A stretch of DNA of 46,511 bases from Actinomycetota bacterium (GTDB taxonomy: Bacteria > Actinomycetota > UBA4738 > HRBIN12): positions 1 through 46,511 of the forward strand of contig DATLZM010000016.1 of assembly GCA_035573995.1 (NCBI GenBank), written 5' to 3'. Of this stretch, positions 7,938 to 25,431 are shown one piece after another. The stretch's first letter is position 1; each line of letters begins with the position of its first letter. Both the position numbers and the translations under genes were made by a program. The notes beneath the pieces were generated by a model. That model searched no databases and had not been told where the DNA came from. It worked only from the letters and a program-made list of their open reading frames with translations.

Positions 7938-9866
7938 GTGTTCGACCGACGCGGACGGATCGATAGCGCCACGAAACGCGTTGCGCTCATCAGCGAGCAC
8001 GCCTCGCCCGTCGCGGAGCTCGGCGGGGTGGACGCGGGCGGCCAGAACGTCTACGTGGGGGAGCTCGCCCGCCACCTCGTCCGGATGGGCTACGACGTGG
8101 ACGTCTTCACCCGTCGCGACGCGGAGGCCTTGCCCGACGTCGCGGAGTGGGTGGACGGCGTGCGGATCGTCAACGTCCCGGCGGGGCCGCCGCGCTTCGT
8201 CCCCAAGGAGGAGCTCCTGCCGTTCATGGATGCCTTCGCCGACCACGTCGTCGCGTTCTGCGAGCGGCAGCCGGGCGGCTACCAGATCGCGCACGCGAAC
8301 TTCTGGATGTCGGGGCTCGTCGCGGCGGAGCTCAAGCGCCGGCTCCGGATCCCGTTCGTCGTCACCTTCCACGCGCTCGGACGGGTCCGCCGGCTCGCGC
8401 AGGGAGACGCCGACCGCTTCCCCGACCAGCGCTTCGCGATCGAGGACCGCGTCGTGCGGGAGGCCGACCACATCATCGCCGAGTGCCCCCAGGAGGAGGA
8501 GGACCTGATCCGCCTGTACGACGCCGACCCGGTGCGGATCACCGTGATCCCCGCAGGGTTCGATCCGGGCGAGCTCCACCCGATGAGCAAGGAGCTGGCG
8601 CGGGTGGCGGTGGGGCTCCGCCCCGAGGACCGGGTCGTCCTCCACGTGGGCCGGATGGTTCCCCGGAAAGGCGTGGACACGGTGATCGAGGCCCTGGGCC
8701 GCCTGGTCCGGGTGCACGGCATGGAGGCCATCCTGGTGATCGCGGGGGGCGACACCGACCGTCCGGACCCCGAGGCGACGCCGGAGATCGGACGCCTGCA
8801 GCGCGTCGCCCGCCGGGAGAGGGTGGAGGACCGGGTGCGGTTCGTGGGCCGGGTCGGCCGGGAGAAGCTCAAATACTTCTACAACGCCGCCGACGTCTTC
8901 GTTACGACGCCCTGGTACGAGCCCTTCGGGATCACCCCGCTCGAAGCGATGGCCTGTGGGACCCCGGTGATCGGCTCGAACGTCGGCGGGATCAAGTTCA
9001 CCGTCCGCGACGGCGAGACCGGCTACCTCGTGCCCCCGCGGGATCCCGACCGCGTCGCCGAGCGCCTCGCACACCTCTTCGGTCACCCTCGGCTCATGGC
9101 CCTCTTCGGGCGCCAGGGGATTCGACGGACCAACGACCTCTTCACGTGGCGTCACGTGGCGACCGCGGTGGCCGCCCTCTACGAGCAGGTGTGCCTGTCG
9201 GGGAGCACCGACGAGCTCGAGCACGCCGACGAACTCGCGGCCATCGAACGCGCCTTCGCCGGACTCACGCGGTCGCTCGCCGAGGCGAGCTCGATCCTGG
9301 CCCCCGTGATCGCGCGGGCCGGGCGCGTGCTCGTGGAGACCTTCGAGACGGGCGGCAAGGTCCTGATCTGCGGGAACGGCGGCAGCGCCGCCGAGGCCCA
9401 ACACCTGGCCGCGGAGCTCGTCGGCCGCTTCAAGCACCCGGACCGGCCGGGGCTGCCAGCCCTCGCGCTCACCTCCGACTCCGCGGTGATGACGGCGTGG
9501 TCCAACGACGTCGCGTTCGAGGACGTCTTCGCCCGCCAGATCGAGGCCCTGGGGTCGCGCGGCGACGCCCTCCTCTGCCTCTCCACCTCTGGGCGGTCGA
9601 GGAACGTGGTCCGGGCCCTCGAGACCGCCCGGCGCGCCGGCATCCGGACCGTGGCCGTCCTGGGCGGGGACGGGGGACTCGCGCGCAAGCTCTGCGACGT
9701 GGCGGTCGTGGTCCCCTCGACCGAGCCCCAACGCGTCCAAGAGATCCACCTCCTCGTCGTCCACCTCCTGTCCGAGATCGTCGAAGCCCGGCTGTTCTCC
9801 AGACCGTGGGACGAACTCCTGTCCGGCGGCCGTCGGGCGGTGGCGGCACGCAACGACGCGGGATGA
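7938..9866 (+). CDS. fusion protein: GT4 (GT-B, sucrose-phosphate-synthase/MshA-like) glycosyltransferase plus GmhA-type SIS sedoheptulose-7-phosphate isomerase
   Basis: ORF 7875..9866. GTG 7938 is preferred because AGGAGG lies 4 nt upstream. N-terminal part has ALISEHASPVAELGGVDAGGQNVYV and EPFGITPLEAMACGTPV (E-x7-E). C-terminal ~200 aa have GGKVLICGNGGSAAEAQHLAAEL, CLSTSGRSRNV and QEIHLLVVH, which align by eye with GmhA. Confidence 0.85.
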   Translation: MFDRRGRIDSATKRVALISEHASPVAELGGVDAGGQNVYVGELARHLVRMGYDVDVFTRRDAEALPDVAEWVDGVRIVNVPAGPPRFVPKEELLPFMDAFADHVVAFCERQPGGYQIAHANFWMSGLVAAELKRRLRIPFVVTFHALGRVRRLAQGDADRFPDQRFAIEDRVVREADHIIAECPQEEEDLIRLYDADPVRITVIPAGFDPGELHPMSKELARVAVGLRPEDRVVLHVGRMVPRKGVDTVIEALGRLVRVHGMEAILVIAGGDTDRPDPEATPEIGRLQRVARRERVEDRVRFVGRVGREKLKYFYNAADVFVTTPWYEPFGITPLEAMACGTPVIGSNVGGIKFTVRDGETGYLVPPRDPDRVAERLAHLFGHPRLMALFGRQGIRRTNDLFTWRHVATAVAALYEQVCLSGSTDELEHADELAAIERAFAGLTRSLAEASSILAPVIARAGRVLVETFETGGKVLICGNGGSAAEAQHLAAELVGRFKHPDRPGLPALALTSDSAVMTAWSNDVAFEDVFARQIEALGSRGDALLCLSTSGRSRNVVRALETARRAGIRTVAVLGGDGGLARKLCDVAVVVPSTEPQRVQEIHLLVVHLLSEIVEARLFSRPWDELLSGGRRAVAARNDAG

Positions 9867-10624
9867 TGGGGACCGGACCGGCGCCAGGGCGGGAGCCCCA
9901 TCCGCCCCTCGCGGGTACGACGGCCCTCGTCACGGGCGCCGGCCGGGGTCTGGGCCGCGCCATCGCGGCCGTGCTCTCCGACGCCGGCGCCCGCGTGTTC
10001 GCGGCCGACGTGGCCTGGGAGGACGAGCAAGCCGCGGGGGGCAACGAGCCCATCCCGGCGCGGGGGATCGAGCCCATCCTCCTGGACGTAGCCGACCGCG
10101 GATCGGTCCGAGCGGCGGTGGAGGCGGTCGAGGCCGCGGCCGGTCCGATCCGGGTGGTGGTGAACAACGCCGGGATCGACGTGACCGCTCCGTTCGAGGA
10201 GATCGACCCGGCGACGTGGGACCGGATCATCGACGTCAACCTCCGCGGGCCCGCCAACGTCTCCCGCGCCGTGTGGGGATCGATGCGACGCGCCGGCGGG
10301 GGCTCCATCGTGAACGTCGTCTCGACCGCCGCCCGGCGGGCGTGGGCGAACGCCTCCGCCTACCACGCAAGCAAGTGGGGGCTCCTCGGCTTCTCCCACG
10401 CGCTCCACGTGGAAGGGCGGGAGGCAGGGATCCGGGTGACCGCCGTGATCGCCGGGGGGATGCGCACGCCCTTCCTCCTCGACCGCTTCCCGGGGATCGA
10501 TCCCTCGACCCTCCAAGAGCCCGAGGCCGTGGCCGCCGCGGTCCGGTTCGCCGTCACCCAGCCGGAAGGCACCGTGATCCCCGAGATCATGGTGGTGCCG
10601 ACGGCGGAGACGTCCTGGCCGTGA
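9863..10624 (+). CDS. classical short-chain dehydrogenase/reductase
   Basis: Last 253 codons of ORF 8147..10624. Motifs TGAGRGLG, NNAG, S-x(n)-YHASK. ATG 9863 overlaps the upstream stop (ATGA). Confidence 0.85.
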   Translation: MMGTGPAPGREPHPPLAGTTALVTGAGRGLGRAIAAVLSDAGARVFAADVAWEDEQAAGGNEPIPARGIEPILLDVADRGSVRAAVEAVEAAAGPIRVVVNNAGIDVTAPFEEIDPATWDRIIDVNLRGPANVSRAVWGSMRRAGGGSIVNVVSTAARRAWANASAYHASKWGLLGFSHALHVEGREAGIRVTAVIAGGMRTPFLLDRFPGIDPSTLQEPEAVAAAVRFAVTQPEGTVIPEIMVVPTAETSWP

Positions 10625-11799
10625 GCGCTGACTTCGTCGGAGCCCCCTCCGCCGCTGCCGGCGCCGTCGCAGGAGGCCTCCCGGCGCCCACCGGGACGGC
10701 CGACCCGTCCCGGGTGCGCCGCTGGCGGGAAGCCCGCCGGGTCCTCGCCGTCCGCCTGGACGGCATCGGCGACCTGCTCATGACCACGCCGGCCCTCCGG
10801 GCGCTCAAGGCCTCAGCGCCCGGACGGTCGATCACGCTCCTCTGCGCCCGACGGGTGCTGGAGGCGGCAGCCCTCGTTCCGGAGGTGGACCGGTCGATCG
10901 CCCACGACGCGTCCTGGGTGAAGGGGCCGGCTCCGTCGCCTGCGGCCGAGCGGCGTCTCGTCCGGCAGCTCAGGCGGATGCGGTTCGAGGCCGCTGTGAT
11001 CTTCACGGTGTCCACCCAGAGCGCGCTGCCGGCCGCCACCCTCTGCCGTCTCGCCGGGATCCCCCTCCGGTTGGCCCACGTCCGCGAGAAGGTCTACGAC
11101 CTCCTCACGGACCCCGTGCCCGATCCGGAGCCCGAGCGGGACCCCCGACACGAGGTCCGCCGCCAGCTCGATCTCGTGGGCGCGGTCGGCGCGAGGTCGC
11201 CCGACCCGTCCCTCTCCCTCCGGATCCCGGACGCCGCGCGTCGCCGAGCCGCCGAGCTGCTCCGCGCCGCCGGCCTGGACCCGTCCCGCCCGTGGGTCCT
11301 CCTCCACCCGGGCGCCTCGGCGCCCTCCCGGCGCTACCCGGCCCTTTCCTACGGCGCAGCCGCCCAGCTATTGGACGGGGACGGGATCCAGGTGCTGGCG
11401 GTCTCCGGCCCCCGCGAGGAACCGCTCCTGGAGGCGGTCGCCGCCGCGGCGCCGGCCGTCCGTCGCCTCCCGGCCGCGCCCACCTTCGCCGTGCTCGCCG
11501 CGCTCGTCGAGGCCGCCCCGGTCCTGATCGCGAACAACTCGGCCCCGGCCCACGTGGCGGCGGCGGTCGGCACACCCGTCGTCGACCTCTACGCGTGGAC
11601 GAACCCGCAGCACGGTCCCTGGGGCGTCCCGAGCCGGGTGCTCAACCGGGACGTCCCGTGCCGGGGCTGTCGCCGGAGCGTCTGTCCCCTCGGCCACCAC
11701 CACTGCCTCACGCTCGTGCCGCCGGCCGAGGTGGCGGAGGCCGCCCGCGGTCTGCTCGGGATGCGAGCGACCTCCAGACACGTGGCATGGGCCGGATGA
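10621..11799 (+). CDS. glycosyltransferase family 9 (heptosyltransferase) paralog 1
   Basis: RVLAVRLDGIGDLLMTTPALRAL, HPGASAPSRRYP, IANNSAPAHVAAAVGTP. C-terminal CRGC..CPLGHHHC cluster. GTG 10621 overlaps the SDR stop. The start could be a little further downstream. Confidence 0.8.
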   Translation: MSADFVGAPSAAAGAVAGGLPAPTGTADPSRVRRWREARRVLAVRLDGIGDLLMTTPALRALKASAPGRSITLLCARRVLEAAALVPEVDRSIAHDASWVKGPAPSPAAERRLVRQLRRMRFEAAVIFTVSTQSALPAATLCRLAGIPLRLAHVREKVYDLLTDPVPDPEPERDPRHEVRRQLDLVGAVGARSPDPSLSLRIPDAARRRAAELLRAAGLDPSRPWVLLHPGASAPSRRYPALSYGAAAQLLDGDGIQVLAVSGPREEPLLEAVAAAAPAVRRLPAAPTFAVLAALVEAAPVLIANNSAPAHVAAAVGTPVVDLYAWTNPQHGPWGVPSRVLNRDVPCRGCRRSVCPLGHHHCLTLVPPAEVAEAARGLLGMRATSRHVAWAG

Positions 11800-12395
11800 G
11801 GTTTGGCCGTTCGAGCGAGGGGTACGAGGAGCACGTGGAACGCGGCCAGCGGCGGGTCGGTGCGGTCCTCTTCGACCGCGATGGGACCCTGATCGAGGAC
11901 GTCCCGTACAACGCGGAGCCCGCCCGCGTGGTGCCCCGTCCCGGCGCGCGGAGCGCGATCGAGTTGCTCCGAGGCGCTGGGCTGGCCCTGGGCGTGGTCA
12001 CGAACCAGAGCGGGATCGGCCGGGGTCTGGTCGACGCCGCCGCCGTGGCACGGGTGAACCGACGGGTGGAGGAGCTCCTGGGCCCGTTCGGCGTGTGGGC
12101 GATCTGCCCTCACCATCCCGAAGCGGGCTGCGGCTGTCGGAAGCCGGCCCCAGGGCTCGTGCTCCGCGCCGCCGAGGCCTTGGGGCGTGCGCCCGAGGAG
12201 TGCGTGGTGGTGGGCGACACCTGGGCGGACGTGGGCGCCGCGCTCGCCGCGGGCGCCGGCGGCATCCTCGTCCCCAACGACCGTACGCGGCCGGAGGAGC
12301 TGCGCATGGCCCCGGAGGTCCGCGCCTCGCTGACCGAAGCGGCCCAGGCGATCGTGGCCCGCCTACGCCCGCTGGCCACCGAGGGGAGGAGGTAG
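11787..12395 (+). CDS. gmhB: D-glycero-D-manno-heptose 1,7-bisphosphate phosphatase (HAD-IIIA, GmhB-like)
   Basis: LFDRDGTLIED, VVTNQSGIGRG, Zn-type CPHHPEAGCGCRKP, VVGDTWADV. ATG at 11787 or 11796 overlaps the GT9 stop. Confidence 0.8.
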   Translation: MGRMRFGRSSEGYEEHVERGQRRVGAVLFDRDGTLIEDVPYNAEPARVVPRPGARSAIELLRGAGLALGVVTNQSGIGRGLVDAAAVARVNRRVEELLGPFGVWAICPHHPEAGCGCRKPAPGLVLRAAEALGRAPEECVVVGDTWADVGAALAAGAGGILVPNDRTRPEELRMAPEVRASLTEAAQAIVARLRPLATEGRR

Positions 12396-12397
12396 TC

Positions 12398-12805
12398 ATG
12401 CCGAAGACGTCGAGGGAAGGGAAGCCGAGGAAGGGCGAGCTGCCGAAGACCCTCCAACGGTCGCCGGCGAAGGCCCAGCGCACGTACGCGAAGGCCCACG
12501 ACAGCGCGGTCGAGACCTACGGCGAGGGGCAGCGAGCGCACCGCGTCGCGATCGCCGCGCTCAAGCACTCGTTCGAGAAGGTCGGCGACCACTGGGAGCC
12601 GAAGGACCGGAAGGGGCCGTCGGACCCCCGGGCGAAGCGCGGCGGACGCGAGGCCCGGGCCGGCCGGGGCGAGACCTTCGGCGGGATCGACGTCGAGGGT
12701 TCGAGCCGGGCGGAGCTCCTGGAGCGGGCGCGGGCGCTCGGCATCAGGGGCACCTCCCGGATGAACAAGCGGGAGCTCGCCGAGGCCATCGCCCGCGAGC
12801 AGTGA
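12398..12805 (+). CDS. ChaB-like protein with C-terminal Rho-N/SAP-like domain
   Basis: ATG 12398 preceded by GGAGGAGG. LPKTLQRSPAKAQRTYAKAHDSAVETYG is ChaB-like. SRAELLERARALGIRGTSRMNKRELAEAI is a Rho-N-type helix-hairpin. Confidence 0.7.
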   Translation: MPKTSREGKPRKGELPKTLQRSPAKAQRTYAKAHDSAVETYGEGQRAHRVAIAALKHSFEKVGDHWEPKDRKGPSDPRAKRGGREARAGRGETFGGIDVEGSSRAELLERARALGIRGTSRMNKRELAEAIAREQ

Positions 12806-12812
12806 CGCGGCG

Positions 12813-12992
12813 TCATCCCTCCGCGGTCACGTCCCGGAGGAACGCGGCCCGGAGCCGCCGCAGGAGCCGACGGGCCCTCCGCGAGGCGGCCGCCATCTCC
12901 GGTGCGCCGGCCTCCCTGGCGAGGTGCTCGATCGTCTGGAGCTCCTCGAGGACGTCCGAGAACCGGACCGGATCCCCGCCGCGACGGCTCAC
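12813..12992 (-). CDS. small hypothetical helical protein (59 aa; below the ORF-track cut-off)
   Basis: Hand translation: V(GTG)SRRGGDPVRFSDVLEELQTIEHLAREAGAPEMAAASRRARRLLRRLRAAFLRDVTAEG, stop TGA. GAGGGG lies 8 nt upstream. By my count GC3 is ~92%, GC2 ~56% and GC1 ~81%, which is a coding-like pattern. Confidence 0.45.
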   Translation of the reverse strand: MSRRGGDPVRFSDVLEELQTIEHLAREAGAPEMAAASRRARRLLRRLRAAFLRDVTAEG

Positions 12993-13037: not shown

Positions 13038-13175
13038 CTACCGACCACGTCGCCGCTCCCTGGTCCTGCGGCGCGGGACCGTCCCGCGTTCCAGCGCCAG
13101 GCACTCTTGGCACAGCCCGAGCAGCGAGCGGGTCACCGCGCCGCAGCGTTCGCATCCGATCGCGATGGTCTTCAT
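13038..13175 (-). CDS. small CxxC...CxxC zinc-ribbon protein with Arg-rich tail (45 aa; below the ORF-track cut-off)
   Basis: Hand translation: MKTIAIGCERCGAVTRSLLGLCQECLALERGTVPRRRTRERRRGR, stop TAG. Its ATG overlaps the stop of the upstream gene (ATGA at 13175-13172). GGAGGG lies upstream. Confidence 0.55.
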   Translation of the reverse strand: MKTIAIGCERCGAVTRSLLGLCQECLALERGTVPRRRTRERRRGR

Positions 13176-13798
13176 ACCCGCAGCTTTCCCCCTCCGCCGG
13201 GAGGCGAACCGGCTTCGCGGGGCTCACCCGCCCACGCCGCGTCCGGTCCGCAGCGGCTCCCCGCGTACCTCGCGTCGTTCCCGTCGAACACGTCGAGGTC
13301 CACCCCATCGGGCAGCCCCAGGGAACGGAGCAGCAGCCGGCGATGGTCGCGCCGTGCGACGAACGCCTCGTAGGCCGAGACGACGAAGGGGATCCCCGAC
13401 GCGACGATCCCGCCGAAGATCTGCCGGTAGGCCCGGCGAAGGTTCGCGTAGGCTCGCCCGAGGTCGGGGACGTGTCCCCGGTCCACTTGGCTGGCGGCGG
13501 TCGCGAACCAGTCCCGCGTCGTCACCACCGCCACGGCCTCGTCGACGTCCAGGGCGCCCACGAGCGCCGGGACATCGGGCCACTCGTGCGGCCCCGCGGG
13601 GGGATGCCAGTGAGGCGCGCTCCGCCGGATCACCGGCGGCCGGTCATCGGGTGGCGGCTCGGGGCCGTCGTCGCCGCCGACCACGGCCGTCGGCCGGCAC
13701 CCGGCCAGCACGAGCAGCCGGGCCGTCATCCTGGTCCCGCTCGATTCGGGCCCCAGGACGAGGAAGCCGCGCGAGGGTCGCTGGTTGTGGAGGGCCAT
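13172..13798 (-). CDS. P-loop-like protein, possibly sulfotransferase-fold; function unknown
   Basis: Last 208 codons of ORF 13172..14782 (-), starting at MALHNQRPSRGFLVLGPESSGTRM. GPESSGT resembles a 5'-PSB loop and VVTTRDWFATAAS resembles the R-D-x(6)-S 3'-PB motif of bacterial sulfotransferases. High GC3. Confidence 0.7.
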   Translation of the reverse strand: MALHNQRPSRGFLVLGPESSGTRMTARLLVLAGCRPTAVVGGDDGPEPPPDDRPPVIRRSAPHWHPPAGPHEWPDVPALVGALDVDEAVAVVTTRDWFATAASQVDRGHVPDLGRAYANLRRAYRQIFGGIVASGIPFVVSAYEAFVARRDHRRLLLRSLGLPDGVDLDVFDGNDARYAGSRCGPDAAWAGEPREAGSPPGGGGKLRV

Positions 13799-13819
13799 CG
13801 CCTGGGTATCTCCCCCGCG

Positions 13820-14935
13820 ATGCCCGAGCTGGAACCCCTCCGCCGGGTCGCGATCCTCCGGGCCCTGCGGCTCGGCGACCTGCTGTGCTCGGTGCCGGCC
13901 CTGCGGGCGCTGCGCCGGGCCTGGCCCCACGCCGAGATCACGCTGATCGGCCGGCCCTGGGCCGCGTGGTTCGTGCGCCGGTTCTCCTACCTCCTCGACC
14001 GCTTCCTCGCGCTCCCGGGCTGGCCGGGGGTCACCGAAGAGTTCGACCCCGGCGCGGCCCCGGGGTTCCTCGTCGAGGCGCAGGGGCGCCGCTTCGACCT
14101 GGTGGTCCAGATGCACGGGAGCGGGCTCGCATCGAACCCCCTCGCGCTGCTCCTCGGGGCACGCCGGACCGCCGGCTACTTCCTCCCCGGCCAACCCAGG
14201 CCCGATCCGGAGCTCGCGGTGCCGTACCCCGGGCACGGCCCCGAGGTCCTCCGGCACCTCGAGCTGGCGGCGGCGCTCGGGGCCCCCGCAGGCGGCACGC
14301 ACCTCGAGATACCCGTCCTCCCCGGGGACCACGAACGGCTCACCGCGGCGCTGGGAGGGGAGCGGCTCGACGCGTACGTCGTGCTCCATCCCGGGGCCGC
14401 GGACCCGGCACGCCGCTGGTCCCCCGAGGGGTTCGCGGCGGTGGGCGACCGGCTGGGGCCCGACCTCCGGGTCGTGATCACCGGGACCGATGACGAGCGG
14501 GGGGTGGCTAGGGCGGTCGCGGAAGCGATGGATGCTCCCGCGCTCGACCTGTCGGGGCGAACGGACCTCGACGCGCTGGTGGCGCTCGTCGCGGGAGCCC
14601 GGCTCGTGGTGGCGAACGACACGGGCGTCTCCCACCTCGCCGACGCCCTGGGGGTGCCGAGCGTGGTGGTGTTCACGGCCTCCGACCCGGCCCGCTGGGC
14701 TCCACTGGACCGGGAGCTCCACCCGGTCGCGGTCGGGCCGACGATCGAGCGGAACCCGTGCCGTCACCTCGAGGGCGAACACCGCTGTCTGCGTGACGCC
14801 TGCCGGATCGGTCAGCGGCGGCTGACGGAGATCGCCCGGGACGCGGTGGACCCCGCCCTCGTGGTGGAGCTGGCCCGGCGGGCCCTCGCCCAGCGGTCAT
14901 CGAGGCGCCGAGCGCTCCCGGACCCCGTTGGCTGA
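13820..14935 (+). CDS. glycosyltransferase family 9 (heptosyltransferase) paralog 2
   Basis: Last 371 codons of ORF 12902..14935. RVAILRALRLGDLLCSVPALRAL, HPGAADPARRW, VANDTGVSHLADALGVP. C-terminal Cys/His cluster CRHLEGEHRCLRDAC. Confidence 0.85.
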   Translation: MPELEPLRRVAILRALRLGDLLCSVPALRALRRAWPHAEITLIGRPWAAWFVRRFSYLLDRFLALPGWPGVTEEFDPGAAPGFLVEAQGRRFDLVVQMHGSGLASNPLALLLGARRTAGYFLPGQPRPDPELAVPYPGHGPEVLRHLELAAALGAPAGGTHLEIPVLPGDHERLTAALGGERLDAYVVLHPGAADPARRWSPEGFAAVGDRLGPDLRVVITGTDDERGVARAVAEAMDAPALDLSGRTDLDALVALVAGARLVVANDTGVSHLADALGVPSVVVFTASDPARWAPLDRELHPVAVGPTIERNPCRHLEGEHRCLRDACRIGQRRLTEIARDAVDPALVVELARRALAQRSSRRRALPDPVG

Positions 14936-16013
14936 GGCAGGCCACCCCCGCGACGTGGCGCGGGCCGCCGTGCTCCGAGCAGGTGGGCTCGGCGACCTGG
15001 TCTTCGCGCTGCCCGCCCTCGAGGCGCTCCGCTCGCGCTTCCCGGGAACCGAGATCGTGCTGCTGGGCGCGCCCTCCCACGCGGAGATCCTCGGGCCTCG
15101 GGGGACGCCGGTCGACCGCGTCGAGGTCGTGCCGCCCTGGCCGGGCCTGCGAGAGGAGCCCGGCGCGATCCCGGACCCGCGCGATCAGGCGGCGTTCCTC
15201 TCGCGGATGCGGCGAGAGCGGTTCGACGTCGCCGTACAGCTCCACGGAGGCGGCCGGCGTTCGAACCCGTTGGTACGCAGCCTGGGGGCGAGGTTGACGG
15301 TGGGCCTTCGGAGCCCCGACGCACCCGAGCTCGACCGATGGGTCCCGTACGTGTACCACCAGCACGAGGTGCTCCGGGGCCTCGAGGTGGTGGCGCTCCT
15401 CGGCGCGCGGCCCCGCTCCCTTCTACCGCGCCTCTCCCCCACCCCGACCGAGATCGAGGCCTCCCGGAGGCTCGTGTCGGAGGGGGATCCCATCGCCGTC
15501 CTCCACCCTGGCGCGGGCGATCCCAGGCGGCGGTGGCCCCCGGAGGGATTCGCGCAGGTGGGCGACCGCCTCGCCGAACTCGGGGCGCAGGTCGTCGTCA
15601 TCGGGACGGCGCCCGAGGCGGGGGTGGCCGCCCGGGTGGCAGCCGCGATGCGACGGCCCGCATCGACCCTGGCGGGACGCCTGTCCCTGCCCGCACTCCT
15701 CGGGCTCCTGGCCAGGGCTCGACTGGTCGTCTCCAACGACAGCGGTCCGCTCCACCTCGCAGCAGCCCTCGGTACACGGACCGTCGGCATCTACTGGTGC
15801 GGCAACCTGATAAACGCTGGGCCGCTCGCCACCGCGCGCCACCGGCCGGTCGCCTCCTGGCGCCTCACCTGCCCCACCTGCGAGGCGAGCTGCCTCCACG
15901 GATCGTGCGCTCACCGCGGATCGTTCGTCGCGGACGTGCGACCGCAGGACGTCCTGGCCGAGGCCCTCGACCTGTGGAACGGACCGGGTGTAGGGGACCC
16001 CGGGAAGGGGTAA
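14928..16013 (+). CDS. glycosyltransferase family 9 (heptosyltransferase) paralog 3
   Basis: ORF 14928..16013 (TTG start overlapping the upstream stop; the start could be slightly later). AVLRAGGLGDLVFALPALEAL, HPGAGDPRRRWP, VSNDSGPLHLAAALGT. C-terminal CPTCEASCLHGSCAH. Confidence 0.85.
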   Translation: MAEAGHPRDVARAAVLRAGGLGDLVFALPALEALRSRFPGTEIVLLGAPSHAEILGPRGTPVDRVEVVPPWPGLREEPGAIPDPRDQAAFLSRMRRERFDVAVQLHGGGRRSNPLVRSLGARLTVGLRSPDAPELDRWVPYVYHQHEVLRGLEVVALLGARPRSLLPRLSPTPTEIEASRRLVSEGDPIAVLHPGAGDPRRRWPPEGFAQVGDRLAELGAQVVVIGTAPEAGVAARVAAAMRRPASTLAGRLSLPALLGLLARARLVVSNDSGPLHLAAALGTRTVGIYWCGNLINAGPLATARHRPVASWRLTCPTCEASCLHGSCAHRGSFVADVRPQDVLAEALDLWNGPGVGDPGKG

Positions 16014-16058
16014 CCACGAGCCGTGAGGCAAGGGGACCGGACGGCGAGCGCGGCCGGG

Positions 16059-16319
16059 ATGGTGGTCCGCGTGATCGAGCTCGTCGGGAGCTCCGAGCGG
16101 TCCTTCACCGACGCGGTGCGGCGAGCCGTGCGCCCCGCGTCCGGATGCCTCCCGGGGATCGTCGGCGTGGAGGTCGTATCCGCCACGGCCGACGTGGGCG
16201 GGGAGGGGGGCGTTTCCCTGTTCAAGGTGACTTGCAGGGTCGCCTATGAAGGCGAGGGGGGAGGCCTCCCGAGGACCCCCTCGGCCTCGTCGTCTGGGGG
16301 GAGGCCGCGCCACGATTAG
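16059..16319 (+). CDS. dodecin-family (flavin-binding) protein with an atypical C-terminal tail
   Basis: MVVRVIELVGSSERSFTDAVRRAV...GIVGVEVV...FKVTCRVAY fits the dodecin pattern. About 21 extra Gly/Ser/Pro/Arg residues follow the core. Confidence 0.7.
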   Translation: MVVRVIELVGSSERSFTDAVRRAVRPASGCLPGIVGVEVVSATADVGGEGGVSLFKVTCRVAYEGEGGGLPRTPSASSSGGRPRHD

Positions 16320-19297: not shown

Positions 19298-19334
19298 GCC
19301 TGGGCCACCTTCCCCTAGGGGTCGGACCGGGGGT

Positions 19335-19700
19335 TCGCTACGGATCCTCCCCCGAGGTCACGAGGCACCGGGCCTTGCGTTCCGGGCGGGCCGGCGAAGG
19401 GGAGGCCTCCCGTGATCCTGCGGACGGGACGCGGACGTGCGGCTCCCGGAACGGCCGCGGGTCGTGGCCGTCGACAACGCCTCTTCGGACGGGTCCGCCG
19501 GCACGTCGAGCGTCGCTTTCCCGGCGTGCACGTGATGCCCCTCGGCCGGAACCTCGGTGCCGTGGCTCGCACCATCGGGGCCCGGGCGATCGACGCCCGG
19601 TACGCCGCCTTCAGCGACACGACTCCTGGTGGGAACCCGGCACGCCGACCCGCGCCACCTGGACCGGCATGCTCATCGCGGTCGGGAGGCCGCGGAACGT
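19335..19700 (+). pseudogene. frameshifted, 3'-truncated GT2 glycosyltransferase remnant
   Basis: LPERPRVVAVDNASSDGSA in frame 0 (19443-19499, stop at 19533). FPGVHVMPLGRNLGAVARTIGARAIDARYAAFSD in the frame of ORF 19412..20062. DSWWEPG in the frame of ORF 19375..20085. Nothing GT2-like follows ~19700. Boundaries are approximate. Confidence 0.5.
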
Positions 19701-19760
19701 CTCTCGCACCGCGCTACCCGGCGATCCGCAAACACATCGGCGAGACGTACGACACAAGCA

Positions 19761-21272
19761 TCACATCTCCTGCGGGGGCGCGTGGCCGCGCGCGAGGAGG
19801 AAGGCCGAGACGAGCAGCAGGAGGAGGACGAGGCCGCCGCCGACGTACCGCGCCGTCTCCACCCCATGGGGCGCGGACCCCGAGTACGACCCCCACTCGA
19901 AGGACAGCGCCGGCAGGTCCTCGAGCGGGAGCGCGTCGGCGCCGATCGCCAGCTCAAGCCCGTACCCAGGTGCGGCGACGATCTCGACGGGGACCGGCGC
20001 GATCACCCGGCCGCCATCGAGCTCCACCGATCCCAGGCCGTGGGCGACCAGGTCCGTCGTGAAGACCCCGCCGCCCTCCCGGTAGTCGACGCCGTACGCC
20101 ACGCCCCACCACGTGGTCTCGGTGCCGGTCGGGTCCTCGACGAGCGGGCGGTCCACGGAGATCCGGTACGTGTGCCCGTCCGCCGAGACGTGGGCGTCGA
20201 CCACGAGACGGTCGTGGGGCGGGAGCGGCGTCACACGGTTCCCCATGTCCGTCGTGTCGATGCGGATGACTCCCCGACCGACCGCCCCCGTCCCCCCTTC
20301 CACCCGGACCGGGCCCTCCGCGCTGAAGGACGCGCGTACCCCGAGATCCTCCTCGTCGATCGTGGCGCCGGTGATCAGCAGGATCAGCGGGACCAGCGCG
20401 GCGGCGGGAAGCGCTCGCCGGAGCTCCTGGGGGCCCCAGACCCACCGGCTGAACGCGAGGAGGATGCCGACCATCGCGGCTGCGTAGATGGGGAAGCTGA
20501 TCAGCCAGAGCTCCCTGTAGTCGAGCCACCGCACCGTCGCGGGAGGCGGCGCCGGGTCCAGGACCCTGAGCGGCGCGTCCGGGAGGCCGGATGGCCCGAC
20601 GAACTGACCGTAGGCGGCCCAGACGACCGCGAGGAGGATCCCGCCGGCGACCGCGGCGGCGACGTCCCTCCCCACGCCGCTCCACCACCAGAAGAGGATC
20701 GGGACCGTGATCAGGGCCCGGACCACGAACCACGTGACACCCGGGAACTCCTGGAGCGCCAGGCTGGCGGCGCCGCCGGCGACGAGCACGATCACGGCGC
20801 CCACGACGAGCGACGCGGTGCCGAACCACGCCGGCCCCCGCTCCTCCGTCCGGGTAGGTGGACGGCCGGGGACCGCGATCCCCGCCCAGCGCCTCCTCCA
20901 GATCCAGAGCGCGGCCAGGTAGCCGAGGTAGATCACGCCGAAGTGGATCGGGAGTCCGCTGATCCACGTGTGCTCCAGGTCGAGCCAGACCGGGATCGAC
21001 GGGAGGCCGATCGGCGAGAACGTCCAGTAGTAGACTGTGAGGACCAGCGTGTGGACCGCCGTGATGACCGCTCCCCGCCCCTCGCCGACGCCCATCCAGG
21101 CGGTGCCGAGGCCGAACACCGTGAAGATCAGGAAGCTCTTGGTCACCCAGTACGTCCAGTAGGGGTCGTTCTCCCAGGTGAGGCCGTGCCCGATCGCCGC
21201 GTCCGACAGGATGCCGAGGAGCGCGACCGTCCCTGCGAATCGGACCGACTCGTACGGGCCCGGCCTGATCAT
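19761..21272 (-). CDS. polytopic membrane protein of unknown function with a beta-rich extracytoplasmic domain and C-terminal anchor
   Basis: ORF 19761..21272. About 8-9 hydrophobic helices in the first 310 aa, then a ~150-aa soluble segment (HTYRISVDRPLVEDPTGTETTWWGVAYGVDY), then a terminal TM helix. High GC3. I recognise no family. Confidence 0.7.
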   Translation of the reverse strand: MIRPGPYESVRFAGTVALLGILSDAAIGHGLTWENDPYWTYWVTKSFLIFTVFGLGTAWMGVGEGRGAVITAVHTLVLTVYYWTFSPIGLPSIPVWLDLEHTWISGLPIHFGVIYLGYLAALWIWRRRWAGIAVPGRPPTRTEERGPAWFGTASLVVGAVIVLVAGGAASLALQEFPGVTWFVVRALITVPILFWWWSGVGRDVAAAVAGGILLAVVWAAYGQFVGPSGLPDAPLRVLDPAPPPATVRWLDYRELWLISFPIYAAAMVGILLAFSRWVWGPQELRRALPAAALVPLILLITGATIDEEDLGVRASFSAEGPVRVEGGTGAVGRGVIRIDTTDMGNRVTPLPPHDRLVVDAHVSADGHTYRISVDRPLVEDPTGTETTWWGVAYGVDYREGGGVFTTDLVAHGLGSVELDGGRVIAPVPVEIVAAPGYGLELAIGADALPLEDLPALSFEWGSYSGSAPHGVETARYVGGGLVLLLLLVSAFLLARGHAPPQEM

Positions 21273-21321
21273 CGGGGAACGGACCTCATGGAGGCCCTTC
21301 GGGTGAGCGCTCCCCCCACGG

Positions 21322-21804
21322 TCACATCAACTCGCGCGTCTCGCCCGGAGGCGCGACCTCGCCGCGCCACCCCCCGGTCTCGACCCCGCGCTCCTCGATG
21401 AACCCCTTGAACCGCTCGAGGTCGCCCCGGACCCGAGCCTCCACGATCCCGGCGGCGCTTGCGACCTTGGTGGTCACGGAGTCGGGCCGGTACTCCATCC
21501 GGAGCGAGACCTTGGTGCGCCCCCCGTCGATCGGCTGGAAGCGGACCAGGCCCGAGAGGGCGGCGCCCTCGGTCGACGTCCACTCGATCAGCTCGTCCGG
21601 GATCTGCCGCGTGATCTGGGCGGTCCACTCCCGCTTCACCCCGGCGATCTCGGCCACCCAGCGGAGCGACGTGTCGGTGAGCTGCTCGACCCGCTCGACG
21701 CCCTCCATGAAGCGCGGGAACTCCTCGAACTGCGTCCACTGGTTGTACGCGGTCCGTACGGGAACGTCGACGACTACCTCGTGCTCGATGACGTTCGTAT
21801 CCAT
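21322..21804 (-). CDS. SRPBCC / polyketide-cyclase-like (Polyketide_cyc2) domain protein
   Basis: ATG 21804 with GGAGGAGG 7 nt upstream. VVVDVPVRTAYNQWTQFEEFPRFMEGVERVEQL...W.AEI.G..REW.A.I is the typical SRPBCC pattern. Confidence 0.8.
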   Translation of the reverse strand: MDTNVIEHEVVVDVPVRTAYNQWTQFEEFPRFMEGVERVEQLTDTSLRWVAEIAGVKREWTAQITRQIPDELIEWTSTEGAALSGLVRFQPIDGGRTKVSLRMEYRPDSVTTKVASAAGIVEARVRGDLERFKGFIEERGVETGGWRGEVAPPGETRELM

Positions 21805-21893
21805 AGCCGATCCTCCTCCCGTTCCGAGGCCGTCGCACCGACCGCATCCCATCGGGATGCCCGCGATCGATGATTCCCCGGGGTGGGCCTCCG

Positions 21894-22964
21894 CTAACCC
21901 CTCCCCGACCGATGGCGATCACGCACGGGGTAGCCCTCGGAGCACCGAGAGCCCGAGATCGGGTCTTCCCACCGCCCGACCCCTTCCTCCCCGCGATCCG
22001 CATCCGAACGGCGGTTCGAGCCGCGCTGGCCCCCCGACCGGCTCCGCGAGCGGGCGCTCCGCCGGACCCTAGCCGAGAGCGGGCGGGACGATGTCGTGGG
22101 GGGATCGGGCCCAGTCTCGGCGTTCCCCGAGCGGCCGTCCGATCCATAGCCGCCCGCCCTGCCGGAGAACACGAGAGGCGCGTCCACCACCCGCTCGGGA
22201 AGCGTGGTGGCGACCTCCAGGTGGTAGGCGCCCGAAGGGAGGATCCCGCACCCCCCGGCCGTCGCGAGCACCCGGCGCTGGGCCTCCACGTCCTCCCCCA
22301 CGTGCCCTTCCGGGGGCAGCTCGCGCCAGAAGGAGAAGCCCCCGGCGGCGCGGAGCGCGTCGGTGTCGAACAGCACGCACCCCCCCACCCAGGCCACCTT
22401 GTACCGGATCGGCCGCTCCTTCGCGGCCCCGAGCCGCTCGGCGACGTGCGCGACGTTGGCGGCGTTGTGGAGCAGGTGCCGGCGCCAGGCGGGCGTCCCC
22501 GGCTCCACCCGCTCGGGGAGGACGGGCCCCTCCCAGACCTCGAGCTGCCACTCGTGCGGCCGGACGTCCGACAGGTAGCTCGCCCCGATCGGGGCCGAGC
22601 CCACGAACCCGCACCGCTCCTCGAGCAGCACCGCGCGCAGCCGCTCCAGGAGGTCGGGCTCGATGAAAACGTCGTCGTCGAGGAAGAGGCAGGCCCGCCC
22701 CCTCGTCCGATCCAAGAGGAACTGCCGCTGCTGCGCCATGCCCCGCCGGGGCAGGTTCCGGTGGACCTCCACGGGCCGTCCGCCGGCCCGCAGGATCCGC
22801 AGGACTGTCGCCACCTCCGGGCGCTCCCACGCCGGGTGGTCCTCGGTCTGGTCGGAGACGACCAGGCGGAAGTCGCGGAAGGTCTGGGCCGCGACCCCGG
22901 CGAGCGTCACCGCCAGCGCCGTCGGCCGCCGGTACGTGGGGACCAGGATGTCGACCTCGGCCAT
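21894..22964 (-). CDS. GT2 family glycosyltransferase (with ~90-aa low-complexity C-terminal tail)
   Basis: ILVPTYRRPTALAVTLAGVAAQTF, VVSDQ, LFLDDDV (DxD). ATG 22964 lies 5 nt after the hldE stop. Confidence 0.8.
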   Translation of the reverse strand: MAEVDILVPTYRRPTALAVTLAGVAAQTFRDFRLVVSDQTEDHPAWERPEVATVLRILRAGGRPVEVHRNLPRRGMAQQRQFLLDRTRGRACLFLDDDVFIEPDLLERLRAVLLEERCGFVGSAPIGASYLSDVRPHEWQLEVWEGPVLPERVEPGTPAWRRHLLHNAANVAHVAERLGAAKERPIRYKVAWVGGCVLFDTDALRAAGGFSFWRELPPEGHVGEDVEAQRRVLATAGGCGILPSGAYHLEVATTLPERVVDAPLVFSGRAGGYGSDGRSGNAETGPDPPTTSSRPLSARVRRSARSRSRSGGQRGSNRRSDADRGEEGVGRWEDPISGSRCSEGYPVRDRHRSGRG

Positions 22965-22969
22965 CGGCC

Positions 22970-24448
22970 TCAGGAGGCAGGGGCCGGCGACGCGGCGCGG
23001 ATCCTGTCGATGAGCCCCGTCGTCGATCGGTCCTCGACGTAGGGGAGGATCTCGACCCGTCCCCCGAGCGCCTCCACGAGGGCCGCCTCAGGCAGGCGCT
23101 CCCTGGCGTAGTCCCCGCCCTTCACGTAGACGTCGGGCCGGATCGCGCGGATCAGCTCGAACGGGGCGTCCTCGTGGAACGCGACGATGTGGTCGATGCA
23201 GGAGAGGGCGGCGAGGACCTCCGCCCTGTCCTCCAGCGGATTGATCGGCCGCCCCGGGCCCTTCAGCCTCCGCACGCTGTCGTCGCCGTTCAGCGCGACG
23301 ATGAGCACGTCCCCCAACGCCTTCGCTCGGTTGAGGTAGGTGATGTGACCGCGGTGGAGGAGATCGAAGCAGCCGTTGGTGAACACGATCCGGCGCCCTT
23401 CCTCGCGGTACCTGGCGACGTGGTCCGCCAGCTCCCCCGGGCTCTGGAGGGCGCGGGGGGCCGCCGACAGTGAGGCCCGGAGCTCCTCGGCCCGACAGGC
23501 GGCGGTCCCCGCTTTGTCCACGACGAGCGCGGCGGCCGCCGAGGCAAGCTCCCCGGCCATCGGCGCTTCGGCGCCGGCCGCCAACGCGAGCGCGAAGGCG
23601 GCCGTGAAGGTGTCCCCGGCGCCCACCGCGCGCCAGTCCGGCCGCGGCCGGGCGTAGGTGCGGTGCGGCTGCCTCCCCCATTCGAAGACCATCGCACCGT
23701 CGGCATCGAGGGTCACGGCGGCGATCCGTGCGCCGACCGCCTCGAGCAGGCGGGGGCCTCGCCGCAGGAGGAAGGCCTCCCGCTCGCCCCTCCCCGGCCG
23801 GCCCCGGGCCCTGAGGACCGACAGGGCCTCGGTGAAGTTCGGCTTCACCGCGTCGGGGCCGACCATCCTGTACCGGCGGAGGTCCTTCGCGTCGACGATC
23901 AGCGGGCACGCATGGCTCCGCCGGACCGCCGCGAGGGCCGCCAGGACCGCATCCGACAGCACGCCGTAGCCGTAGTCCGAGACGATCACGACGTCCGTAG
24001 AACGGACCGCCTGTCGGAGTCCTCGCACGAGCCGCTCCTCGCTCACCGCCGCGATCGGGCCGATCGTCCCGCGGTCGAAGCGGACCAGCACCTGCGCGTC
24101 CGCGACGAGACGAGCCTTCACGAGCGTCCCCCGCCCCTCCTCCTCCACCAGCCCCCCGACTCCCACTCCGCGCTCCTCGAGCGCCCGGCGCAGCCGAACG
24201 GCCCCGTGGTCCGCCCCCACCACCGACAGGAAACGAACCTCACCGCCGAGCGCGGCGGCGTTCACCGCGGCGTTGCCGGCCCCACCGGGAACGTGGACCT
24301 CCTCCGTCACGTCCAGGATCGGCACCGGCGCCTCGCGGGACAGGCGGCGGACGGACCCCCGCAGGTAGGCGTCGAGGATCGCCTCCCCTACCACGAGGAC
24401 GCGCAGCCCCGAGATCCGTTCGAGGAGGCGTCCCAGTTCCCGGCTCAC
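22970..24448 (-). CDS. hldE: bifunctional D-beta-D-heptose 7-phosphate kinase / D-beta-D-heptose 1-phosphate adenylyltransferase
   Basis: Last 492 codons of ORF 22970..25294. Ribokinase-like half (VLVVGEAILDAY, PGGAGNAA, VGAGDTF) plus cytidylyltransferase half (VFTNGCFDLLHRGHITYL, YVKGGDY). GTG 24448 overlaps the upstream stop (GTGA). Confidence 0.9.
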   Translation of the reverse strand: MSRELGRLLERISGLRVLVVGEAILDAYLRGSVRRLSREAPVPILDVTEEVHVPGGAGNAAVNAAALGGEVRFLSVVGADHGAVRLRRALEERGVGVGGLVEEEGRGTLVKARLVADAQVLVRFDRGTIGPIAAVSEERLVRGLRQAVRSTDVVIVSDYGYGVLSDAVLAALAAVRRSHACPLIVDAKDLRRYRMVGPDAVKPNFTEALSVLRARGRPGRGEREAFLLRRGPRLLEAVGARIAAVTLDADGAMVFEWGRQPHRTYARPRPDWRAVGAGDTFTAAFALALAAGAEAPMAGELASAAAALVVDKAGTAACRAEELRASLSAAPRALQSPGELADHVARYREEGRRIVFTNGCFDLLHRGHITYLNRAKALGDVLIVALNGDDSVRRLKGPGRPINPLEDRAEVLAALSCIDHIVAFHEDAPFELIRAIRPDVYVKGGDYARERLPEAALVEALGGRVEILPYVEDRSTTGLIDRIRAASPAPAS

Positions 24449-25431
24449 CGCACCCTCCCGGCGGTGAGCGATGCCCCTGGGGCCAGCCCGCCGGCCGCGT
24501 CGGCGAAGGCGCGGTTCCACCGGCGGCAGAACCGCCCCAGGTCGAACCGCTCCAGGGCGTGCCGCCTCGCGGCCTCCCCCAGCCGACGGGCCAAGCCATG
24601 ATCGGCGAGCAGCTCCCGCATCCGTGCCACGAGGACCCCCGGATCCGTGTGGACGAAGCCGGACACCCCGTCGCGGACCACCGTGGCAATCTCGGTGGTC
24701 GCGAGCGCCACGACGGGCGCCCCGATCATCATGGCCTCGCACACGGCGAGGCCGAGGCTCGTGTACCGGGCCGGGTGGAAGAAGAAGCGGCGCTCGGCGA
24801 TCCGGGGGGCCACCTGATCGTGCGGCACCGGGCCATGTCCCCCGACCGCTTCGGAGCCCATCCCGAACAGGTCCAGCGGTACCGTCCGCGACGCGGCGAG
24901 GAACAGGTCCAACCCGGCCCGCCTGCCGCGCCGCGCGATCTCGTTCATCACGACGACCCCGCGGGGGACGTACCCCAAGTACCGGACGCCGGGGGAGGGG
25001 GGAACCCCGTGCTCGATCACCCGGGTCGGGGTCCGACCGCTGTCCCACATCAGATCGTTGAACGCCGTGACGTGGACCAGGAGCACGTCGGGGTCGTCGA
25101 CAGGATGCCGGGCGTCGGTCGGATGTTCCCTCGGCGGGTCGTGCTCGACGTAGACCCGGGGGAGGCGGCGCTGCGATGGCGACAGGATCTCGAACTGGTC
25201 GACGAGGTAGTTCCGGCGCGACTGGAAGAGCACGAGATCGAATCGCTCCCTCCGGACGTCTTCGGCCGCGACCTCCCGGACCGTCGCGGGCCACGGGAAG
25301 GTGCCGGCCCGTCCGAGGTATCCCTCGGGGCGCCCGGGCTTCACGGGTAGGAGGAAGTCATGACCCGTGTGGGCCAGGGCGTACAGGTAGCTGCCGTGGA
25401 CGTGCCAGGTCAGGATCCGGAGCCTCTGCAC
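24445..25431 (-). CDS. GT4 (GT-B) glycosyltransferase
   Basis: ORF 24445..25527. RILTWHVHGSYLY N-terminus, and FHPARYTSLGLAVCEAMMIGAPVVA (E-x7-E region). The start is uncertain. GTG 25431 with GGGGAGG upstream is preferred over the TTG at 25527, which lies upstream of a promoter-like element. Confidence 0.75.
   Translation of the reverse strand: MQRLRILTWHVHGSYLYALAHTGHDFLLPVKPGRPEGYLGRAGTFPWPATVREVAAEDVRRERFDLVLFQSRRNYLVDQFEILSPSQRRLPRVYVEHDPPREHPTDARHPVDDPDVLLVHVTAFNDLMWDSGRTPTRVIEHGVPPSPGVRYLGYVPRGVVVMNEIARRGRRAGLDLFLAASRTVPLDLFGMGSEAVGGHGPVPHDQVAPRIAERRFFFHPARYTSLGLAVCEAMMIGAPVVALATTEIATVVRDGVSGFVHTDPGVLVARMRELLADHGLARRLGEAARRHALERFDLGRFCRRWNRAFADAAGGLAPGASLTAGRVR

Follow-up and report, generated by a model that had tools for sequence, protein, structure and literature searches.

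ADP-heptose is a precursor of lipopolysaccharide (LPS) and a signal for the human innate immune receptor ALPK1. A 2024 commentary points out that genes for making heptose occur much more broadly than heptose in LPS, and that little is known of what heptose does beyond LPS, a few glycoproteins and natural products. Here we analyze a gene cluster on a 46,511-nucleotide contig from an Actinomycetota bacterium (GenBank assembly GCA_035573995.1, contig DATLZM010000016.1; this complete 46.5-kb contig is hereafter called the window). The cluster combines the sedoheptulose-7-phosphate isomerase GmhA, a GmhB-like phosphatase and the bifunctional kinase/adenylyltransferase HldE with a short-chain dehydrogenase/reductase (SDR) and six glycosyltransferases: three of family GT9 (GT9_1, GT9_2 and GT9_3), two of family GT4 (GT4a, fused to GmhA, and GT4b) and one GT2 (Table 1). 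The best reading, which we consider somewhat more probably right than wrong, is that of a rearranged, self-sufficient non-LPS heptose-glycan cassette, arranged in three operons, whose enzymes would assemble a cytoplasmic oligosaccharide on a phosphate-bearing acceptor other than lipid A.

The closest described system is the cwg locus of Streptomyces coelicolor (SCO6179-6190), annotated as a “putative cell wall glycan” cluster (Hong, Paget and Buttner 2002, as cited in PMC6767563 and PMC5839063). According to these two papers, cwg has 12 genes, including cwgH for a phosphoheptose isomerase, cwgI for a bifunctional synthase/transferase, and genes for five transferases and a dehydratase; the “cell wall glycan” name is itself predicted and does not come from a determined structure (PMC6767563, PMC5839063). 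We found no determination of the cwg product in the literature. The window shares with cwg a monoderm actinobacterial host, a phosphoheptose isomerase, a bifunctional HldE and several transferases, and, judging from gene order and product names, the two may well be orthologous. A relative on the S. rimosus plasmid pSRIMHP runs GT9, pyruvyl transferase, UXS-like, carbamoyltransferase, GT, HAD-IIIA, GT9, GT4b, GT4a, SIS, rfaE2, GT, GT. It has the core order HAD-GT9-GT4b-GT4a-SIS-HldE-GT-GT in common with the window, the proteins being 37-59% identical, whereas the Streptomyces versions differ in their additional carbamoyltransferase, UXS-like dehydratase and pyruvyl transferase, their separate GmhA gene and their lack of a classical SDR.

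Actinobacteria also carry clusters built around tridomain NDP-heptose synthetases, with several adjoining glycosyltransferases, for which heptose-containing oligosaccharides have been proposed as products (Tang et al. 2022, as cited in PMC9978623 and PMC11573728). In the window, by contrast, the isomerase is fused to a glycosyltransferase and not to a kinase/nucleotidyltransferase, and HldE is an ordinary two-domain enzyme. With the Gram-negative GmhA-HldE-GmhB-HldD pathway the window shares the predicted route to ADP-D,D-heptose, but it lacks HldD. Its GT9 enzymes belong to the same CAZy family as WaaC, WaaF and WaaQ, and GT9_2 and GT9_3 keep both the Asp aligned with D13 and the N-D-S/T-G motif. 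The locus differs from those for LPS cores in that its GT9 enzymes score below the equivalog cut-offs, lipid A and Kdo genes are missing from the window, and the whole cassette also exists in phyla that lack lipid A.

A cassette conserved across phyla

A scan of one genome per species located close relatives of GT9_2 at 579 places, of which the best 80 were kept, and the six-frame open reading frames (ORFs) of all fetched loci were searched with the window proteins. These best 80 of the 579 relatives are 44-58% identical to GT9_2 and come from at least seven phyla, the groups represented being Burkholderiales, Cyanobacteriota, Chloroflexota, Planctomycetota, Nitrospirota, Actinomycetota and several others. 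The genes around them recur in the order GT9_2, sometimes another GT9, GT4b, GT4a (often fused to SIS), SDR, GmhB, HldE, GT9_1 and GT2. Counted per phylum in loci with at least 18 kb of sequence, GT9_2, GT4b, the GT4a::SIS fusion and SDR are present in all ten cyanobacterial loci, GmhB, HldE and GT9_1 in nine, and GT2 in eight. The six loci from Chloroflexota have every part, except that SDR is found in five and GT2 in two of them. A partial cassette occurs in five further groups.

With the exception of GT9_3, every cassette enzyme of the window has a co-linear cassette ortholog. The GT4a part is the most conserved (66-68% identity to orthologs in Chloroflexota, Cyanobacteriota and Nitrospirota), GT4b is 57-63% identical across phyla, and the best orthologs from other phyla reach 49-58% for SDR (56-58% in Chloroflexota, Cyanobacteriota and Pseudomonadota) and about 50-56% for HldE and the two cassette-wide GT9 enzymes. 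A tblastn search with GT4b returned matches of 53-58% identity on annotated plasmids and megaplasmids of Burkholderia multivorans, B. cenocepacia, Cupriavidus, Paraburkholderia and Ralstonia, and a distant version (37-43% identity) in Streptomyces rimosus, Nonomuraea, Clavibacter and Arthrobacter. The cassette genes bear the locus tags A8H40_RS29120-29150 in B. multivorans and SRIMHP_RS40645-40705 in S. rimosus.

The situation described in an earlier note on this DNA, made from the sequence alone, has precedents. Comparison of synteny with relatives recovers the co-linear cassette across phyla: the cassette resides in hundreds of genomes, and actinobacterial heptose clusters with several glycosyltransferases had already been noted. 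The window contains a rearranged copy of a widespread cassette, a gene set that had been noticed before and for which cross-phylum conservation is now added. As one more carrier the window embodies no new principle; its value lies in the cassette reached through it, which, with its presence in at least seven phyla, is a concrete gene set for probing heptose beyond LPS and is carried by the cultivable Burkholderia multivorans, Streptomyces rimosus and Scytonema.

An actinobacterial contig without LPS genes

The host had been read as actinobacterial, and this is borne out by the PAC2 protein encoded at the contig's right-hand end, which shares 89% and 80% identity with proteins whose names derive from Actinomycetota metagenome-assembled genomes (MAGs). 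A further PAC2 protein, P0121, is 96% identical. A luciferase-like monooxygenase and a SigB-type partner-switching module fit the same assignment, and the best matches of the GmhB and ChaB proteins are in a Thermoleophilia MAG. Lipid A, Kdo, HldD and glycan-exporter genes are all missing from the window, as had been stated, and no outer-membrane genes were found in it.

Chloroflexota is regarded as a phylum that lacks lipid A, and cyanobacterial LPS generally lacks heptose. Since the cassette is complete in both Chloroflexota and Cyanobacteriota, its GT9 enzymes most probably do not act on Kdo2-lipid A, and the cassette most probably does not build an endotoxin core. GT9 genes in monoderm genomes should consequently not be annotated as “LPS heptosyltransferases”.

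GT9 enzymes

All three GT9 proteins, proposed as such in the earlier note, clear the Pfam cut-off for Glyco_transf_9 (PF01075; 22 bits) by a wide distance (Table 1). The models for LPS heptosyltransferase equivalogs, on the other hand, all remain below cut-off, with 118 against 134.6 bits for GT9_1 (type II, TIGR02195) and 77 and 73 against 185 bits for GT9_2 and GT9_3, respectively (type I).

For GT9_2, the marker of the cassette, more than 2,000 related sequences fall at E ≤ 1e-10. Its LGD and N-D-T-G-x-S-H motifs, invariant in 83 sequences, align with D13 and D261 of WaaC. A PDB sequence search with GT9_2 matched only 3TOV, WaaF and WaaC (30-55 bits) and revealed no likeness to autotransporter heptosyltransferases (BAHT: TibC, AAH). 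At 30-44 bits, the solved WaaC and WaaF structures are distant relatives. GT9_3 is a paralog 45% identical to GT9_2, with the same LGD and N-D-T/S-G motifs in a three-way alignment. Its close orthologs are confined to the Actinomycetota and Limnocylindrales versions of the cassette (56-59% identity in loci L001 and L078, 47% in L076). All 37 GT9_1 orthologs share N-N-T-G-P-x-H and C-x2-C-x4-C-P-x-G-H-x2-C without variation; the latter, a Cys/His cluster near the C-terminus, has the appearance of a metal site.

Predicted enzymes of ADP-heptose formation

The first step would be catalyzed by the C-terminal half of the GT4a::GmhA protein. The GT4 and GmhA-type SIS domains had been listed as separate entries; both are present (Glycos_transf_1 137, Glyco_transf_4 108 and SIS_2 92 bits), but they lie in a single ORF with no stop codon in between and a possible start as early as TTG 7875. 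The fusion is genuine: the Scytonema ortholog, 658 residues long, contains both Pfam domains as well, and fused forms make up 26 of the 52 orthologs. The GmhA motifs GNGGS...H..AEL, STSG and QE.H are kept in 22-26 of the 26 fused orthologs, and the GmhA model TIGR00441 gives 190 bits against a cut-off of 209 when scored as a domain of the fusion protein. All copies from Cyanobacteriota, Chloroflexota and Nitrospirota are fused, and none of those from Pseudomonadota or Planctomycetota. We considered the fusion as a clue that the GT4a acceptor is a heptose phosphate; the idea is unsupported by the fusion alone. The taxonomic pattern fits a plain role of GmhA in supply where the host has no LPS-linked copy.

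The HAD-IIIA protein is predicted to be the heptose 1,7-bisphosphate 7-phosphatase. It scores 108 bits with the GmhB model NF006506 (cut-off 178), and HAD-IIIA and histidinol-phosphatase-type models are passed; the HAD-IIIA genes of a Thermoleophilia locus (L010) and of S. rimosus encode proteins 59-60% identical to it. HldE exceeds the cut-off for rfaE domain II (TIGR02199, 205 against 181.5 bits), whereas domain I (238 against 345) and the full-length model NF008454 (377 against 521) stay below theirs. Its C-terminal YVEDRSTT (22970-23030, minus strand; Arg in 19 of 25 cassette orthologs) resembles the STTR5 motif, (F/L)xxGRSTT, reported as a mark of heptose nucleotidyltransferases that also make CDP- or UDP-heptose. 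By this likeness, CDP- or UDP-heptose would be possible donors as well, a thought we offer as speculation.

No HldD-type extended-SDR epimerase was found among the window ORFs, the sole SDR being of the classical type, and the heptose should therefore stay in the D,D form. On the strength of these sequence matches, the earlier view that a complete predicted route to ADP-D,D-heptose is encoded here alongside three GT9 enzymes stands.

GT4a and the remaining cassette enzymes

Sucrose-phosphate synthase (SPS) and MshA transfer a sugar to a soluble acceptor that carries a phosphate, and the product is then dephosphorylated by a phosphatase. The best PDB match of GT4a is Thermosynechococcus elongatus SPS (6KIH, 263 bits), ahead of MshA (3C48, 219 bits); the MshA model TIGR03449 gives 302 bits, and identity to the experimentally characterized T. 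elongatus enzyme (Tll1590) is about 45%. In the alignment to 6KIH, GT4a has the GGQ motif and both catalytic residues, His and Glu, and its residues opposite SPS R105 and R178 are basic. Across orthologs, the counterparts of SPS R105 (Lys here), R178, R249, R253, H158, E331 and E339 are invariant in 45-48 of 49 sequences; the roles of these SPS residues in holding the acceptor phosphate, in donor binding and in catalysis are described in PMC7264703. GT4a thus resembles SPS and MshA in its phosphate-holding residues and in the presence of a HAD phosphatase in the same operon, and it most likely glycosylates a phosphate-bearing acceptor. It differs from SPS in forming an ortholog group of its own, fused to GmhA and placed among five further transferases, and its donor and acceptor are predicted only.

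GT4b is a GT-B enzyme with a family-specific N-terminal acceptor domain and the constant partner of GT9_2. The N-terminal half has no Pfam or PDB sequence match, even with a profile, and more than 6,700 protein clusters match GT4b at E ≤ 1e-20, none of them specifically named. The AlphaFold model (pLDDT 91) shows a complete GT4-type fold, and its structural neighbors include enzymes with soluble acceptors, namely BshA, SPS, GlgM, the methylmannose-polysaccharide mannosyltransferase, MshA and glucosylsucrose synthase. As evidence on the acceptor, such model-based neighbors are a weak pointer. Within the first 200 residues many His, Asp and Trp are invariant, as in LTWHVHGSY, EHDPPREHPTD and HVTxFNxLMWD.

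The conserved part of GT2 ends near residue 268, and its orthologs comprise 267-272 residues with 56-61% identity. The remaining 88 residues of the formal ORF (21894-22160, minus strand) are rich in Arg, Ser and Gly, have an atypical codon-position GC and are missing from the orthologs; this tail is probably non-coding, and the stop codon of GT2 has likely been lost.

No transmembrane segment is predicted in any cassette enzyme, all of which are expected to be soluble. The enzyme families, their conserved catalytic residues, the occurrence of the cassette in monoderm and diderm phyla and this lack of membrane-spanning enzymes are direct observations.

Proposed product and alternatives

We propose that the six soluble glycosyltransferases and the SDR would build a heptose-containing oligosaccharide on the cytoplasmic side. 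GT4a would carry out the first glycosylation, with a sugar phosphate, an inositol phosphate or a phospholipid head group as the acceptor, and the HAD phosphatase, besides its predicted role in heptose formation, may remove this phosphate from the GT4a product. The donor specificities, the order of steps, the acceptor and the final location, as a protective cytoplasmic solute or storage glycan versus a part of the envelope, which the Streptomyces name presupposes, are predictions. The lack of conserved lipid-carrier machinery and the SPS/MshA-like first enzyme favor a soluble or head-group-anchored product.

A more specific version, which we consider rather doubtful as a whole, is a hitherto undescribed glycan: an oligosaccharide containing D,D-heptose with an SPS-like start on a sugar or inositol phosphate, serving as a stress protectant in the cytoplasm or periplasm. 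Its core could possibly be non-reducing, like sucrose or trehalose, and be extended by the heptosyltransferases. Such a glycan would be common to soil and biocrust bacteria, monoderm and diderm alike, and, if it exists, it would give a physiological reason why many organisms without LPS heptose keep the ADP-heptose pathway. Beyond the cwg and NDP-heptose papers, we found neither a characterized product of the cassette nor a link to desiccation in the literature on cyanobacteria, Chloroflexi and actinobacteria, and a paper on the Burkholderia low-oxygen locus does not mention the cassette genes. The candidates named in the earlier note (a glycolipid, a wall polymer, a protein glycan or a soluble heptoside) still stand as a list.

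Several points weigh against our proposal. The acceptor is deduced from residue conservation, and MshA, SPS and phospholipid-using GT4 enzymes share much of their machinery. Among the structural neighbors of GT4b are also TarM, PglA and PimA, whose acceptors are membrane- or wall-linked. Where LPS heptosyltransferases carry the Asp of N-D-S/T-G, GT9_1 has Asn; GT9_1 may therefore not use heptose, and its donor could be another sugar. Only the HldE adenylyltransferase and HAD-IIIA domains exceed their NCBIfam cut-offs, the other pathway enzymes falling below the equivalog cut-offs. Finally, an MsbA-like ABC exporter adjoins the cassette in 15 loci, mostly from Pseudomonadota, and PMC6767563 and PMC5839063 place cwg under the envelope-stress factor sigma-E and describe it as induced by cell-wall antibiotics, vancomycin among them. 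The exporters and the sigma-E control both favor a role in the envelope.

These last points lend themselves to an alternative that we regard as unlikely but worth serious consideration, namely a secondary cell-wall polymer or membrane lipoglycan. Peripheral transferases would assemble it on undecaprenyl phosphate or a membrane lipid; it would then be flipped and attached to peptidoglycan or retained in the membrane, and the genes for the initiating transferase, flippase and ligase would lie in other parts of the genome. The similar make-up and regulation of cwg, the MsbA-like exporters and the presence of PimA, PglA and TarM around GT4b in structure space all agree with it, as does a weak similarity of GT4a to the model for GlcNAc-phosphatidylglycerol synthase. 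However, GT4a is closest to enzymes with soluble phosphorylated acceptors, and the “cell wall glycan” label of cwg is itself predicted. Moreover, no gene for a polyprenyl-phosphate transferase (PNPT), Wzx, Wzy, a TagGH-type transporter or an LCP protein or ligase is conserved beside the cassette in 82 loci, whatever the phylum, and the window contains no PNPT, Wzx, Wzy, TagGH-type or LCP gene.

The remaining explanations are much less likely than a cytoplasmic oligosaccharide on a phosphate-bearing acceptor. Quite improbable is the heptosylation of a protein or ribosomal peptide in the cytoplasm, with the GT9 enzymes decorating the substrate and the other transferases extending the glycan. ADP-heptose-dependent protein glycosylation does exist in bacteria, radical SAM/SPASM enzymes, which are typical peptide maturases, adjoin the cassette in 16 loci, and GT2 weakly matches the mycofactocin glycosyltransferase MftF. 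Yet a conserved neighboring gene for a candidate substrate was not found, radical SAM genes are absent from the window, and the PDB matches of GT9_2 were GT9 enzymes of the LPS type, with no autotransporter heptosyltransferase among them.

We give still less credence to a secondary metabolite that contains heptose, as septacidin and hygromycin B do. Actinobacteria do employ the same route from sedoheptulose-7-phosphate to ADP-heptose for such products, and they possess the clusters of NDP-heptose synthetases with several transferases mentioned above, but an aglycone-forming enzyme, an aminotransferase, a resistance gene and an exporter are all absent from the window, and 50-68% identity over seven phyla, including Cyanobacteriota and Nitrospirota, is atypical for a specialized metabolite cluster. 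An ordinary LPS inner-core locus in an unrecognized diderm is the least credible explanation, even though GT9 enzymes with an ADP-heptose pathway are the textbook inner-core toolkit and relatives are labeled “ADP-heptose:LPS heptosyltransferase” in the sources, since the contig is from Actinomycetota, the window has no lipid A or Kdo genes, the WaaC, WaaF and WaaQ equivalog models are all below cut-off, and the complete cassette is present in Chloroflexota.

Layout of the locus

Genes were chosen by third-position GC and then checked against Pfam and NCBIfam (Table 1). All domains named in the earlier note were recovered where it had placed them, with Pfam thresholds passed and NCBIfam in agreement.

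Table 1. Cassette genes and adjoining genes of the window, with family matches.
Feature	Position	Strand	Assignment or best family match
GT4a::GmhA fusion	7938-9866	+	Retaining GT4 (SPS/MshA type) N-terminal, SIS sedoheptulose-7-phosphate isomerase C-terminal
SDR, classical	9863-10624	+	adh_short, 163 bits
GT9_1, WaaF-like	10621-11799	+	Glyco_transf_9, 83 bits
GmhB-like HAD-IIIA phosphatase	11787-12395	+	TIGR01662 HAD-IIIA, 108 bits (cut-off 44.6)
Small ChaB + Rho_N protein	12398-12805	+	ChaB, 71 bits; Rho_N, 29 bits
GT9_2, cassette marker heptosyltransferase	13820-14935	+	Glyco_transf_9, 95 bits
GT9_3, paralog of GT9_2	14928-16013	+	Glyco_transf_9, 107 bits
SRPBCC (START-like) protein adjoining GT2	21322-21852	-	Polyketide_cyc, 81 bits
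GT2, likely coding part	22161-22964	-	Glycos_transf_2, 45 bits; formal ORF 21894-22964
HldE, bifunctional kinase + adenylyltransferase	22970-24448	-	PfkB, 126 bits; CTP_transf_like, 62 bits
GT4b, GT-B glycosyltransferase	24445-25431	-	Pfam matches C-terminal half only

Start and stop codons overlap at most gene junctions (ATGA, GTGA, and overlaps of 8 and 13 nucleotides), the start of SDR overlapping the stop of GT4a::GmhA as ATGA, and the genes therefore form three tightly coupled operons. A separate gene call for GT4b (P0241) likewise starts at 25431. The window has a GC content of 70-78%, with no sign of a compositional island. Rfam and tRNA scans detected no RNA genes in the window. A scan of the region for sigma-70-type consensus sequences gave no match, promoter and terminator scans were uninformative, and no search for a sigma-E motif was made.

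Between GT9_3 and GT2 lies a spacer of about 5.8 kb (16014-21852), described in the earlier note as containing decayed genes. This description proved largely wrong, as the spacer is mostly taken up by intact genes unconnected with the cluster, encoding a dodecin, an M50-CBS-PDZ-Lon_C protease, a 503-residue membrane protein and the SRPBCC protein; only the stretch from 16320 to 17140 has no recognizable gene. In the closest relative (L001; GT9_2 55% identical), GT9, GT9, GT2, HldE and GT4 are contiguous, and the spacer is for this reason taken to be an insertion into the cluster. The unrecognizable stretch, about 820 bases between the dodecin and protease genes, has no ORF with a family match. 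Short motifs seen by eye in two frames had suggested a decayed zinc alcohol dehydrogenase; this idea is unsupported, Pfam and PDB searches having returned nothing and tblastn a single unannotated match of 29% identity. The protease (17141-19297, minus strand; 718 residues) carries two CBS domains and one PDZ domain together with a Peptidase_M50 membrane domain and the C-terminal domain of Lon proteases. Such a combination of two protease types is unusual, and the gene lies within the insertion that divides the cluster. Neither it nor the 503-residue membrane protein was retained as a part of the system, because both are nearly absent beside other cassettes: among the fetched loci, the membrane protein has no relative near a cassette, and the protease has one in L047 only.

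The SRPBCC protein may be an accessory gene product. Relatives occur near the cassette in 12 of 83 loci, the strongest being six of the Burkholderiales type (94-155 bits; 52% identity in L037), with weaker ones (49-63 bits) in loci from Omnitrophota, Eisenbacteria and Myxococcota. The ChaB + Rho_N gene may be a lineage-specific accessory gene outside the cross-phylum cassette; in the Thermoleophilia locus L010, a copy with 63% identity immediately precedes the GT9_2 ortholog. Between this gene and GT9_2, an ORF of 209 residues (13172-13801, minus strand) has coding-type third-position GC and a P-loop-like GPESSGTR motif. It was excluded from the system because neither Pfam nor NCBIfam gave a match and the 85 fetched loci contain no relative of it.

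Farther along the window, a partner-switching stress module (32721-39722) comprises a 1069-residue PAS-GAF-PP2C phosphatase of the SpoIIE type, a group 3 sigma factor, and STAS-like and anti-sigma-kinase-like ORFs, the phosphatase and sigma factor having been checked with Pfam and the other ORFs read by eye. A similar set, consisting of a PAS protein, STAS and HATPase_c_2, lies upstream of the glycan genes in L001. The gene at 27294-28310 (plus strand) encodes a bacterial type IB DNA topoisomerase (Topoisom_I + Top1B_N_bact), a family that is patchily distributed in bacteria.

Genes near the cassette in other genomes

Unbiased clustering of flanking ORFs from 82 loci identified a carbamoyltransferase with its own glycosyltransferase in about 33 of them, a UXS-like extended SDR in 18-19, a PucR-type regulator in 11 and a PIG-L deacetylase in 5-6, in addition to the radical SAM/SPASM enzymes and MsbA-like exporters discussed above. 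None of these genes occurs in the window, which thus has no carbamoyltransferase, UXS-like extended SDR, radical SAM enzyme, MsbA-type exporter, PucR-type regulator or PIG-L deacetylase.

In the loci of S. rimosus (L084) and B. multivorans (L085) the cassette is flanked by small DUF2795 proteins, with BON-domain proteins and two sigma-54 enhancer-binding proteins in addition in Burkholderia; the flanking genes concerned lie at 643-837 in L084 and at 1185-2168, 22431-22835 and 23924-24223 in L085. This hints at the context of a stress island. The same flanking proteins are not found near the cassette in most other loci.

Two loci, L010 (3566-5401) and L067 from an Actinomycetes MAG (8521-9297), have SIS in a separate ORF next to an HldE-like gene, and this SIS domain scores lower than the cassette copies. 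These sets may be of the tridomain NDP-heptose synthetase type, placed beside the GT9_2-GT4b pair. In cyanobacteria, a GT9 N-terminal fragment of about 150 residues lies between GT9_2 and GT4b (11034-11495 in L013, and its equivalents), and in Chloroflexia a full-length third GT9 occupies the same position.

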